Source of the DNA: an uncultured Thermoplasmata archaeon
GTDB lineage: Archaea; Thermoplasmatota; Thermoplasmata; UBA10834
NCBI GenBank assembly: GCA_963719945.1
Contig: CAVRDX010000004.1
Coordinates: 96,001 to 160,000, forward strand
Length of the DNA stretch: 64,000 nucleotides
Direction of reading: 5' to 3'
The notes beneath the pieces were generated by a model. The model was not told the origin of the DNA, did no database searches, and saw nothing but the letters and a program-made list of their open reading frames with translations. Below, one piece after another: positions 12,101 to 31,281 of this stretch. A program made the position numbers and the translations under genes. The stretch's first letter is position 1; the number at the start of each line of letters is the position of its first letter.

Positions 12101-12204
12101 TGGAGCCACTGGAGGGTCTCGAACCCCCGGCCTGCAGTTTACGAAACTGCCGCTCTCTAGCGGCACCTGCATGGTCGCAGGCGCAACCGCTGAGCTACAG
12201 TGGC
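12101..12204 (-). tRNA. tRNA-Thr(CGT) with a 29-nt non-canonical intron at position 20/21 (intron 12157-12185); CCA encoded
   Basis: Acceptor GCCACTG/CAGTGGC, D stem GCTC/GAGC, anticodon arm GCAGT-TTCGTAA-ACTGC, T arm GGGGG-TTCGAGA-CCCTC, U73 then CCA. The D-loop insert folds as a BHB: AGCG/CGCT helix, GTT and AGA bulges, and a GCGCCTGC/GCAGGTGC intron stem. Confidence 0.95.
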
Positions 12205-12339: not shown

Positions 12340-14481
12340 ATGGTTAGCGATCTCCGAATTCCTGAAGGGATAATTGTCAGGACTGCCAAAGGAGGCCCTG
12401 ATTCGCTGAAGGGCATACTGTCCGACCTGAAACAGTATAGCTTCACTGGTTACCTGAAGGTCACGCTCGAGAAATCCGTGATGAACTCCACGGGTTACAT
12501 CGTAGTGGAATTGGGAGCGCCCGTCATGGCGATCTACGAGTTCGAGAAATCGAAACCCAGGGAGCTGCGGAGGATATACACCGGAGAGAAGTCACTGAGA
12601 TTCATACTCGAGGATTCGCAAGACAAGGGATCCAACATCGAACTCCACAGCCGTGTCCCCAAGGAGGAGTTCGAGCGTAGGTTCCCTGACGCCTATATCG
12701 CTGGAGGAGCCGCCCCCAAACCGACCACTAGGACCCCCCGGGACGAAGCGAAGGTCAAGGAAGAGGTGGAACTCGATCCGTATGTCGAGAAGATTGAGCA
12801 GTGGCGCAGGAAGGGGTACAAGGTAGATACGCTTGAGACGGCGAGGGAGCAGGGAGTCCAGGAGATCTCGAAGGAACTTACAGGTTTCGAGCGCGACACG
12901 AACAAGCTCAGGCAGTTCGAGACGATCCTGAACAACTTCCCGATACTGGGGCTCGAGCCGGAGATCGCGGAGATAAGGACCAAACTGAACGATCCCACTC
13001 GAATCGCTGAGATAGAATCGGATATCGAATTCCTGCAGGAGAAGATCCGCCGGAAGATACAGAAGAGGAAGGCGGAAGAGGATTCGATAAAGCAGGAGAT
13101 GGAACGGAAGAAGAGGGATGAGAAGGCGTCGGACGTGTACGACCTGATCCTCAAGTACCAGACGACGCCCGAGGGTGAGGAGGCCGTGGAAGCCGTGAAG
13201 TGCCCCATCTGCGGCGGAGAGCTGGAAGATGGACAGTGCAGCAAGTGCGAGAAGGAGCAGAAGTTCACCAAGACATTCCCGACAGAGATGAGGTTCGACA
13301 ATTTCGTGATAGGCCCTGGCTCGAAGTTCTCGGCAGCGACCGCAGTCGCTGTAGCTGAGAATCTAGGCAAGGCATACAATCCGCTCCTGATATTCGGTGC
13401 AACTGGCCTGGGAAAGACGCATCTTCTATCAGCCATCGGAAACCACATACTGAACAAGAACAGTGGATTGACCGCCCTATACGTGCCAGCCGACAAGCTG
13501 GTCGATGCCGTTGAGCACAGTACGACTCCTGACGCCATCAGGATGTTGAGGGAGGAACTGAAACGTGCCGAACTCCTGCTTGTCGACGACATGCAGTTCC
13601 TCGCCGCCAATGAACAAGCTCAGGGTGAGATGGTCCACATCATCGATTCGCTCATCGACTCTGGAAAGCAGGTCGTGCTCGCTAGTGACAGACTGCCTAC
13701 ACAGATTCCGGGCTTCAGCGACAGACTGAATGCCAGAATCCAGAAGGGGTTGACCGTCGATCTGCAGCCGCCGGACGAGAGCACCAGGATCAAGCTCGTC
13801 AGGGTGAAGGCGCATGAGAAGAAGTTGAAGCTCAGCGACGAGATAGTCAAGTACATCGCCGAAAAGGTCACCCAGAATGTTCGCGAGATAGAGAGCACTC
13901 TGAACAAGGTCGTTGCGTTCTCCACCATAATGAAGATGGAAATCGACATGACCCTCGTCTCGGACATACTCAAGCCGCTCGCTCCCGTGCAGGAGACCAG
14001 GAAGGAGATCATGAAGGAGGTCAATGTTCAACCTGGCCATTGCTACCTGATAGAGGAGGAGAAACCGACCTACAGCAATGTCTTGCTGGGGCGGATGATG
14101 GCCGAGAACTATAGAGGGCTCATAATAACGAGGATGAACCCAAAGAGAATAAGAGATGATTTCGAAAAGGACCCTCGAATACTCTGGCTTACCGACAAGG
14201 ATAGTTCGATGGAGAAGACCATCCCGCCATCCCTGGAGATGATAATCCACAAGATCCAGGAATTCATTTCAGAGGAGGGGAACGGCATGGTCGTCCTCGA
14301 TGGCATACAATATCTCATCAGCAGCACCAATTTCGATTCGGTGCTCAGGTTCCTGAGGAGCATAATCGATGAGATGTCAGAATCGAAATGCATATTTGCG
14401 GTATCGATTAGCCCTGAAACCATGAAGGAGCAGGAGATATCGATAATGGAGAGGGAGATGGAGGTCCTGAACCTGACCTGA
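12340..14481 (+). CDS. Multidomain protein: PATAN/DUF2226-like domain, coiled coil, Zn ribbon, DnaA-type AAA+ domain and DUF835
   Basis: True start taken as ATG 12340 because the ORF-track extension overlaps the tRNA. Motifs: FTGYLKVT..GYIVVELG; CPICG..CSKC; FDNFVIG..YNPLLIFGATGLGKTHLL..LLLVDDMQFL..ASDR..RLNARIQKGL..NVREIES; C-terminal CYLIEEEKP..GLIITRMNP..ILWLT..VVLDGIQYLI. Confidence 0.88.
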   Translation: MVSDLRIPEGIIVRTAKGGPDSLKGILSDLKQYSFTGYLKVTLEKSVMNSTGYIVVELGAPVMAIYEFEKSKPRELRRIYTGEKSLRFILEDSQDKGSNIELHSRVPKEEFERRFPDAYIAGGAAPKPTTRTPRDEAKVKEEVELDPYVEKIEQWRRKGYKVDTLETAREQGVQEISKELTGFERDTNKLRQFETILNNFPILGLEPEIAEIRTKLNDPTRIAEIESDIEFLQEKIRRKIQKRKAEEDSIKQEMERKKRDEKASDVYDLILKYQTTPEGEEAVEAVKCPICGGELEDGQCSKCEKEQKFTKTFPTEMRFDNFVIGPGSKFSAATAVAVAENLGKAYNPLLIFGATGLGKTHLLSAIGNHILNKNSGLTALYVPADKLVDAVEHSTTPDAIRMLREELKRAELLLVDDMQFLAANEQAQGEMVHIIDSLIDSGKQVVLASDRLPTQIPGFSDRLNARIQKGLTVDLQPPDESTRIKLVRVKAHEKKLKLSDEIVKYIAEKVTQNVREIESTLNKVVAFSTIMKMEIDMTLVSDILKPLAPVQETRKEIMKEVNVQPGHCYLIEEEKPTYSNVLLGRMMAENYRGLIITRMNPKRIRDDFEKDPRILWLTDKDSSMEKTIPPSLEMIIHKIQEFISEEGNGMVVLDGIQYLISSTNFDSVLRFLRSIIDEMSESKCIFAVSISPETMKEQEISIMEREMEVLNLT

Positions 14482-30117: not shown

Positions 30118-30639
30118 TCATGGCGCGCGTCCCACAATATCGTTCTGGATCGCGCAGACTTCCGCACTGGTCTCCACGGATGCGTACGCGTCAAGTATCT
30201 CTCTGTTCACCTTGATGAACACCGGCCCCCATTTGAACCTGGACATCAACCTCTCTGCATGCTCCGGGTAGCCGAGTATATAAACGGCGGCTGCGAGCGC
30301 CTCTGCAGTCGTCAGCTTCTGTGCCTTGCCGAAGTTAGTGGGGTTCGCGGCGAGGACGAACGGCAGGGCTCGGTGTCTGAGCCCCGGGCGGACGAATGGA
30401 AACTTCGAGAGCTGATTCCAGGAGCAATCGACAGCAAGAAGGCCCAGCTTCATCGCGATCTCCCGGTCCTCTCGCGATATGGACTTCTCTGCTTCCGGGT
30501 CGAGGACTATCGATCCGCCTGGTATTCGTGACCTGTCCTTGACAGGCCGAGCCTCTTCGAACTTTGTCAGCCTGGCGGCAGTGCACTTGCGCGGATCATC
30601 CTCGTGTTCCATCAAGATGTATAGCCGTATCTGCTGCAT
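30118..30639 (-). CDS. tsr3: 16S rRNA aminocarboxypropyltransferase
   Basis: DDPRKCTAARL, VDCSW, RALPFVLAANPTNFG, LTTAEA, FKWG. Confidence 0.92.
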   Translation of the reverse strand: MQQIRLYILMEHEDDPRKCTAARLTKFEEARPVKDRSRIPGGSIVLDPEAEKSISREDREIAMKLGLLAVDCSWNQLSKFPFVRPGLRHRALPFVLAANPTNFGKAQKLTTAEALAAAVYILGYPEHAERLMSRFKWGPVFIKVNREILDAYASVETSAEVCAIQNDIVGRAP

Positions 30640-30726
30640 CTAGTTGAGGCAGTGGCTGCCATAGTATTTAGGATACGTTGAGCGAGCTGGACAAGGGTTC
30701 TTAAAGGTGGGATGAATATATGCTGA

Positions 30727-30788
30727 TGCCACGATGACGAAAGAATTCCTGCTGACATAATGATGAAAGACGGGCGATCGGAGTGGCA
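30727..30788 (+). ncRNA. Box C/D 2'-O-methylation guide sRNA; predicted D-guide target 16S rRNA C1402 (E. coli numbering)
   Basis: Terminal stem TGCCAC/GTGGCA; C ATGACGA (30734-40); guide AAGAATTCCTG; D' CTGA (30752-55); C' ATGATGA (30760-66); guide AAGACGGGCGAT; D CGGA (30779-82). TATA-like CTTAAA at 30700-30705. Confidence 0.85.
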
Positions 30789-30834
30789 GAGCTGGGCATC
30801 ATGAGATGCCCATGTTCGGGAATCGGAAAACGGG

Positions 30835-31281
30835 ATGGAAGGTTGCATGGTCACAGGATTTGACTACCTGAGCCACGACTCTGCTTTGCGAGAGCACTGG
30901 CTGAAACGCTTCATAGCCATTGTGATAGATTTCGCCATAGTCTACACACCCATATGGATCATCTGGGTGGCTCTCGGCCTGCCGATGCTATTTCCAGGCT
31001 ACTTCGCTGGTGTCGCGCTGTTCGCATATTCATTCCTCTTCGAATCCACGATCGGAGGGACTGTCGGAAAGATTATAGTCCACATGAAGGCGGTCCCTAT
31101 CCACGGGTCCATGTCCCCGTCTCAGGCACTGATAAGGAACTTCACCAAAGTGTTCCCGGTATTCCTCATCCTCGATTGGATCATCGGGATGGCGGTCGAC
31201 ACGAATGACCCGAGACAGAAATGGACGGACCATGTAGCGCACACGGCGGTCATAGTCTTCGACCATCCGAGAGCGCCTTGA
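30835..31281 (+). CDS. RDD-family membrane protein
   Basis: WLKRFIAIVID, GTVGK, ALIRN, QKWTDHVAHT. Confidence 0.85.
   Translation: MEGCMVTGFDYLSHDSALREHWLKRFIAIVIDFAIVYTPIWIIWVALGLPMLFPGYFAGVALFAYSFLFESTIGGTVGKIIVHMKAVPIHGSMSPSQALIRNFTKVFPVFLILDWIIGMAVDTNDPRQKWTDHVAHTAVIVFDHPRAP

Follow-up and report, generated by a model that had tools for sequence, protein, structure and literature searches.

A single-copy box C/D sRNA of Thermoplasmata, encoded divergently from tsr3 and predicted to guide 2′-O-methylation of C1402 in 16S rRNA

C1402 of 16S rRNA touches the P-site codon, and its ribose carries a methyl group both in bacteria, where a protein is responsible, and in eukaryotes, where a guide RNA is. 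Cm1639 of yeast and the corresponding human site are presumably the equivalents of E. coli C1402. In E. coli, m4Cm1402 is made by RsmH and RsmI (PMC11551388). Yeast Cm1639 is assigned to snR70 (PMC5699541), the human counterpart is listed as Cm1705 (PMC3511168), and the snR70/SNORD43 clan has been placed in the last eukaryotic common ancestor (PMC3511168). These sources bear out one premise of the reading with which the present analysis began (hereafter the sequence-only reading), namely that the C1402 ribose is methylated by RsmI in bacteria (PMC11551388) and by C/D snoRNAs in eukaryotes (snR70 at Cm1639; PMC5699541).

In Archaea, according to Hoeppner and Poole (2012; PMC3511168), a Pyrococcus RNA named sR12 (Gaspin et al., 2000) is predicted at the site equivalent to that of yeast snR70; the name differs from sR1, the one used in Rfam. 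M. kandleri sR114 and S. acidocaldarius sR122 are RNA-seq-supported C/D sRNAs with a GATGGGCGG guide (Dennis et al., 2015; PMC4644070 supplement). Two sRNAs are predicted in the same supplement at ‘16S C1389*’, which corresponds to E. coli C1402, since PMC4644070 equates position 1395 with E. coli 1408. Sac sR122 is listed there as ‘no prediction’ despite the same guide core (PMC4644070), which was counted against the target reading given below. Literature searches yielded nothing usable on an experimental Cm1402 map in Thermoplasmata or on the target of Pyrococcus sR1. With C1402 guides published for both archaea and eukaryotes, the kind of RNA and its target are already known, and the sequence-only reading, in which archaeal guidance of Cm1402 was treated as new, is anticipated by Pyrococcus sR12/sR1, Mka sR114 and Sac sR122.

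The locus described here lies on the plus strand at 30727–30788 of the window, by which is meant the whole 64,000-nucleotide stretch analyzed (C4:96001-160000 of a 1.78-Mb assembly that is 87% complete). The 62-nt RNA is closed by a perfect terminal stem of 6 bp (TGCCAC/GTGGCA), in which UGCCAC (30727–30732) pairs with GUGGCA (30783–30788) and which is kept in the MFE fold. Within the stem lie the C box AUGACGA (DNA ATGACGA; 30734–30740), a RUGAUGA variant with C at position 5; the D′ guide AAGAAUUCCUG (DNA AAGAATTCCTG; 30741–30751), which is 11 nt long and fast-evolving; the D′ box CUGA (CTGA; 30752–30755); a 4-nt loop, CAUA (30756–30759), between D′ and C′; the C′ box AUGAUGA (ATGATGA; 30760–30766), which forms a K-loop with D′ and whose UGAUGA is invariant in relatives; the 12-nt D guide AAGACGGGCGAU (DNA AAGACGGGCGAT; 30767–30778), which is nearly invariant in the class; and the D box CGGA (30779–30782), a CUGA variant with G at position 2. 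AUGACGA and CGGA retain both GA dinucleotides and the G6–C1 pair of a K-turn, and D′ and C′ are both canonical and split by a short loop, as in the K-loop of archaeal box C/D sRNAs. Guide spacers are usually about 12 nt long; the D spacer has 12 nt, whereas the D′ spacer, both here and in the rest of the family, falls one short at 11 nt. The complete C-D′-C′-D architecture proposed in the sequence-only reading is thus present in all its elements, the short D′ spacer having gone unremarked. Anatomy, sub-threshold Rfam matches, the limits of BLAST matches, the alignment of relatives and a covariance model all bear on the locus as a whole, which is almost certainly a genuine box C/D sRNA gene.

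A BLAST query of 141 nt around the locus (window 30690–30830) found matches in the majority of the 24 members of the family that were searched, in two of three genomes from a sister family of the same order, and in another two families of the class. Among distant relatives, the match limits coincide with the predicted sRNA ends (query 38/39 to 98/99). An alignment of 26 sequences shows little or no variation in the boxes, in the five inner pairs of the stem or in the D guide, whereas the D′ guide is scrambled already at the level of the genus; the boxes, whose lack of conservation had been named beforehand as grounds for abandoning the prediction, are therefore conserved. The covariance model R1, built from this alignment, finds one copy in 135 of the 151 sampled Thermoplasmata genomes (99 of the 108 high-quality genomes; 28 of the 29 sampled families); this tally, like the comparison of guide and 16S at position 1404 below, counts one unpublished genome, G116, which contributes no sequence to the analysis. 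Two copies are present in one complete genome of the family (G017:C1:124377-124446 and G017:C1:817985-818054), and the other genomes with a match are single-copy. Across 79 distinct homologues (83 aligned to the model), the five inner base pairs of the stem form in 99% of cases, and double changes occur at each of the five. The double-change cells number 44, as against 6.6 in shuffles, and every slid register scores far lower, in an alignment that was fitted to R1 and hence somewhat favors the structure. The 6-bp stem that had been claimed is thus not only perfect in this sequence but covaries in homologues, at each of the inner pairs, which answers the proposed check for covariation in relatives.

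The guide core GAYGGGCG is found in nearly all 83 class homologues, in which the D′ guide varies freely. A scan of 185,579 species genomes for the exact pattern recovered the guide within complete C/D sRNAs of Methanobacteriales, Methanomassiliicoccales, Archaeoglobi and Thermococci, and also in full C/D sRNAs of Altiarchaeota, Iainarchaeota, Methanofastidiosa and others; the bacterial matches come without boxes and are expected chance matches. In the C1402 guide RNA of Methanobacteriales (L035, L041, L045, L054, L055 and others), the D′ guide ACCCUAUGAGCU is kept and is common to Methanobrevibacter, Methanobacterium and Methanosphaera, and the second guide there appears to be functional.

The C and D boxes of the sRNA deviate from the consensus only at the positions of the K-turn U·U pair, which is changed to C–G. 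This Watson–Crick pair, standing where U·U is usual, was counted against the guide reading; L7Ae-family proteins tolerate Watson–Crick pairs at the U·U position of a K-turn, as in U4 snRNA. When C-box position 5 and D-box position 2 were tallied in 136 distinct homologues, the pairs were U/U in 100, C/C in 18, C/G in 8, A/U in 7, G/U in 2 and C/U in 1. In all 26 homologues whose D-box position 2 is not U, the base at C-box position 5 is C, which indicates coupling between the two. At least two families (f1 and f8) have C/C, and C/G is confined to the genus of the present genome. Because C·C is the common variant and C–G has this restricted distribution, the sequences suggest a route from U·U through C·C to C–G rather than one double compensation. 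The compensatory C–G pair noted in the sequence-only reading is therefore real as regards the coupling of the two positions, but it would not be a single clean double compensation.

At the target of the D guide, the 16S rRNA of the same genome reads CACACACCGCCCGTCAAACC/CACACACCGCCCGUCAAACC. Guide nucleotides 30769–30776 form eight contiguous Watson–Crick pairs with 16S 1407–1400, followed by an A·C mismatch at 1399 and then by U–A1398. C1402, at position 1340 of this 16S rRNA (G000:C1:50896), is faced by G30774, the fifth guide base counted upstream from box D. An 8-bp match is not significant by itself, since 40% of shuffled guides equal it; what supports the target is conservation together with guide–target covariation. 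In 83 of 83 homologues the guide keeps one register to box D, with G opposite C1402 at position 5. Those guide changes that occur keep pairing: C or U is found opposite G1405, and some lineages gain U opposite A1408. Some lineages carry A opposite C1400, which together with the A·C mismatch at 1399 implies short duplexes of 7–9 bp, a point against the target.

Covariation is seen at position 1404. U1404 is found in the 16S rRNA of 17 of the 151 Thermoplasmata genomes. The guide base opposite 1404 is G in all 39 sRNAs sampled from C1404 genomes; in those from U1404 genomes it is G, as a wobble, in 11 of 17 and A in 6 of 17, the latter representing three genera of two families. A opposite 1404 thus occurs solely with U1404 and never with C1404 (Fisher p 4e-4, a significance exaggerated by the relatedness of the genomes). 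C1404U (e.g., in L196, L198 and L199) departs from the decoding-site sequence CGCCCGUC, which is universal elsewhere, and is distributed over families f8, f19, f20 and f11 (one genus) and one f1 genome.

Pairing of the D guide with 16S 1400–1407, at the top of helix 44 in the P/decoding site, is demonstrated at the level of comparative sequence by this combination of complementarity, conservation and covariation. The sequence-only reading had put the D guide on 1400–1407 with D+5 on C1402 and had called for both guides to be aligned with the 16S, 23S and tRNAs of the organism; that alignment recovers the C1402 register for the D guide, with 8 bp in the organism's own 16S, to which the near-invariance of the guide and its covariation with 1404 are added. 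With the methylated base predicted from the N+5 rule, we estimate the probability that the sRNA guides Cm1402 at roughly 0.88.

The alternatives to guided methylation of C1402 differ in how much of the above they accept. If the D guide were directed at some other RNA (a tRNA, 23S rRNA or an mRNA), the 16S match would be coincidental; 8-bp matches are not rare by chance, and others that include one G·U are found at 23S position 731 and within tRNA-Ala. The guide covaries with 16S 1404, however, and it is kept across classes whose sole shared invariant complement is the universal 16S 1400–1407, so that another target is highly improbable. A different proposal would accept both the C/D RNP and its binding site but place the conserved role in the folding or assembly of the 3′ minor domain, as a chaperone or a checkpoint, with methylation incidental or absent. 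Chaperone roles of archaeal C/D sRNAs are discussed in PMC7994747, a guide-based checkpoint at 1405–1415 has been proposed for N. equitans sR13 (PMC5389701), and the linkage to tsr3 that is conserved across the class (see below) is in keeping with the idea. However, the register to box D, fixed in every homologue with G opposite C1402, is what a methylation constraint predicts and is not something that pairing alone would demand, and the site is ribose-methylated in bacteria and eukaryotes (for yeast Cm1639/snR70, PMC5699541), which leaves the chaperone role quite improbable. As for an assembly of boxes arising by chance in an intergenic promoter region that contains no gene, only the shortness of the motifs speaks for it; it is already refuted by class-wide single-copy conservation and stem covariation, and with the locus unique in a genome scan (see below) it is scarcely conceivable.

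A further proposal concerns the D′ guide. The sequence-only reading held that its core AATTCCT could pair with AGGAAUU at 16S 915–921 (central pseudoknot), and that one RNA would thereby clamp both sides of helix 28. In such a clamp, N+5 would be A918 and one RNP would hold the two flanks during folding. AGGAATT (AGGAAUU) is indeed present at 853–859 of the organism's own 16S, is complementary to 7 nt of the D′ guide and places N+5 on the A918 equivalent. The D′ core AATTCCTG is common to four genomes of the genus and two of a sister genus, and archaeal dual guides that bridge nearby rRNA sites are common (PMC7994747). Against this, at least seven Watson–Crick pairs within the set of rRNAs and tRNAs are reached by 80% of shuffled D′ guides, and a 9-bp match with one G·U to the T arm of tRNA-Cys is equal to the 16S match or better. 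Unrelated D′ guides are found in six further members of the genus; when the D′ guides of 20 relatives were matched to the rRNAs and tRNAs of the present genome, the predicted targets converged on no site; and the spacer is 11 rather than 12 nt long. The guide–target relation found for the D guide is thus not found for the D′ guide; the helix-28 clamp and the tRNA T-arm target were both dropped as chance-level matches, and the 915–921 target and the double clamp that depends on it are to be regarded as improbable. The preferred reading, in which the D guide alone has an assigned target at C1402, leaves D′ as probably an orphan or drifting guide in this lineage.

To place the locus within its genome, the layout C-guide-D′-loop-C′-guide-D with a terminal stem was scanned on both strands of the whole assembly. 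Under strict settings (at most two box deviations, stem of at least 4 bp), 30727–30788 is the sole match in 1.78 Mb, and at up to three deviations there are three loci, as against none in the reversed genome. One weak C/D scan match, C3(-)13325-13371 (GTGATGA ... ATGA ... TGATGT ... CGGA), sits within the 102-nt intron of tRNA-Trp(CCA) (C3:13268-13443, outside the window; aragorn -i). The D′ guide of this intron RNA places N+5 on anticodon C34, and the RNA is the classical euryarchaeal intron-encoded Cm34 guide. The genome therefore has at least two C/D guides, by which the notion that the present sRNA is its only one was ruled out. Other loose intergenic C/D-like matches (C1:293537, 714404, 475195 and 91131) show no C/D signal in Rfam, and a match at C1:212540 was rejected as antisense within a 398-aa ORF. 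The core C/D proteins fibrillarin, Nop5 and L7Ae are encoded in the same genome (PF01269, 248.7 bits; PF01798, 197 bits; PF01248, 105.4 bits).

Two further observations concern stable RNA genes. The 16S (C1:50768-52235) and 23S (C1:127322-130252) rRNA genes are unlinked and about 75 kb apart, as is known for Thermoplasmata. At 12104–12204 of the window (minus strand), a 101-nt tRNA match in Rfam (55.6 bits) implies an intron, and the result of aragorn with introns allowed differs from the call of an earlier note (tRNA-Thr with a D-loop intron).

At gathering thresholds, no Rfam family matches the sRNA locus. A permissive Rfam scan of 30500–31000 puts about ten archaeal C/D families on the spot, all below threshold; the best of them is sR2 (RF01139; 28.4 bits, E 2e-4, short of the gathering score of 42), whose likeness is confined to the boxes and part of the guide. 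Because Rfam misses the locus at these thresholds, R1 is a model that annotation pipelines do not yet have.

The sRNA appears to have its own promoter. A TATA-like element, TTCTTAAAGG, is located at 30698–30707 on the plus strand (TTCTTAAA at 30698–30705), with its center about 25 nt upstream of the first stem base. Archaeal TATA boxes are centered about 26 nt upstream of the transcription start, so this spacing agrees with an independent promoter from which transcription begins on the first stem base or immediately beside it. Relatives in the family and order have TTCTTAAAGG, TTCATAAAGG, TTCTTAAGG or TTATTAAG at the same distance, about 21–30 nt before the stem; the TATA-like element that had been ascribed to the sRNA is therefore not only present but conserved.

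On the other side of this promoter, tsr3 (16S acp transferase family) occupies 30118–30639 on the minus strand (PF04034, E 2.8e-44), which confirms the divergent arrangement reported in the sequence-only reading; its own TATA-like element (about 30664–30672, minus strand) is close enough to the ATG for a leaderless mRNA. MCM adjoins tsr3 on the side away from the sRNA, and a co-oriented gene for an RDD-family membrane protein (30835–31281, plus strand; PF06271), syntenic in relatives, follows the sRNA. The order MCM-tsr3-(divergent)-sRNA-RDD is kept throughout the family and order, and also in many Thermoplasmata outside them, Methanomassiliicoccales among these. Among 25 public loci of the Thermoplasmata type in which tsr3 was found, including Methanomassiliicoccales and Methanomethylophilaceae, tsr3 lies 0.1–1.5 kb from the sRNA in most and 3.9 kb away in one; it is beside the guide in none of the Methanobacteriales, Archaeoglobi and Thermococci loci. 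The linkage may be a synteny of long standing, or the two 16S modifiers may be paired functionally.

Directly 3′ of the sRNA is a stable 8-bp hairpin (UGGGCAUC/GAUGCCCA; 30793–30812, plus strand; −19.6 kcal/mol, z −3.35). It shows a compensatory change from U–A to C–G in genome G005, and other members of the genus have a different GC-rich hairpin at the equivalent place. The hairpin is perhaps a 3′-end or processing element, or else part of the RDD leader. The sister genera (L012–L022) have an additional TATA-like element in the interval from the sRNA to the RDD gene. No such element is seen at 30789–30834 of the window, where the gap is shorter than in the sister genera, and on these two grounds the RDD mRNA may, in this genus, be read through from the sRNA promoter.

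In the mechanism proposed for this locus, a guide RNA of about 62 nt would be transcribed from its own TATA promoter. If the RNA works as others of its class do, a K-turn would form from the terminal stem and the C and D boxes, and a K-loop from C′ and D′; L7Ae would bind both, and a Nop5 dimer with two fibrillarins would assemble on them. The 12-nt D guide would then pair with 16S 1400–1407, and fibrillarin is predicted, by the N+5 rule, to methylate the 2′-OH of C1402, the base that faces guide nucleotide 5 counted upstream from box D; the RNA would then be the archaeal counterpart of bacterial RsmI and eukaryotic snR70/SNORD43.

The conservation of the sRNA in Thermoplasmata and its tracking of position 1404 strengthen the view that RNA-guided Cm1402 is ancient and strongly selected across Archaea. 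No new mechanism is involved: the annotation is refined, and a small data set on tolerated variants of the K-turn U·U pair is provided. It can be speculated, though we consider it rather unlikely, that the C/D machinery of this mesophile-type genome serves only the two detectable guides, that of the tRNA-Trp intron and 30727–30788, with Cm1402 as the sole guide-directed ribose methylation of rRNA, and that the divergent pair with tsr3, perhaps class-wide, is a modification module for the 30S decoding site and head. If so, such archaea would be a clean system in which to study the role of Cm1402 itself and the assembly of a K-turn that has C–G at the U·U position.

Of the described RNAs, sR1 of Thermococcales and Archaeoglobi (RF01152) is likewise an archaeal dual-guide box C/D sRNA, of about 55–60 nt; it shares the guide core GAYGGGCG, the register of this core to the box and hence the predicted target, C1402. 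Its guide is, however, in the C-D′ slot, whereas that of 30727–30788 is in the C′-D slot, and its second guide, stem and genomic context differ. The window scores 10.1 bits against RF01152 (E 4.6), short of the gathering score of 45, whereas the loci of Thermococcaceae and Archaeoglobaceae that have the same guide fall inside this family above threshold (53–54.5 bits). Mka sR114 has variant boxes too, GATGACGA/GAUGACGA paired with CCGA (PMC4644070); this RNA and Sac sR122 belong to other phyla, their guide occupies the D′ slot, and their sequences resemble 30727–30788 in the boxes and the guide only.

In eukaryotes, snR70/SNORD43 (U43; CL00059) has a similar guide (PMC3511168) and, on the equivalence assumed at the outset, the same target nucleotide, but it is longer, has degenerate C′ and D′ boxes, is nucleolar and is often intronic. 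The permissive Rfam scan of 30500–31000 gave no match to the CL00059 families RF00221 and RF01238 at E ≤10. The link to SNORD43/snR70 would accordingly be one of functional equivalence of the target site only, whether by common descent or by convergence. RsmI acts on the same nucleotide with the same 2′-O-methyl chemistry as is predicted for 30727–30788, but as a stand-alone protein enzyme without a guide RNA, and the bacterial base is also N4-methylated. The locus is thus an ordinary and well-supported Thermoplasmata representative of a known kind of RNA; what is new is the Thermoplasmata family itself, its near-universal single-copy distribution and the covariation of its guide with position 1404.
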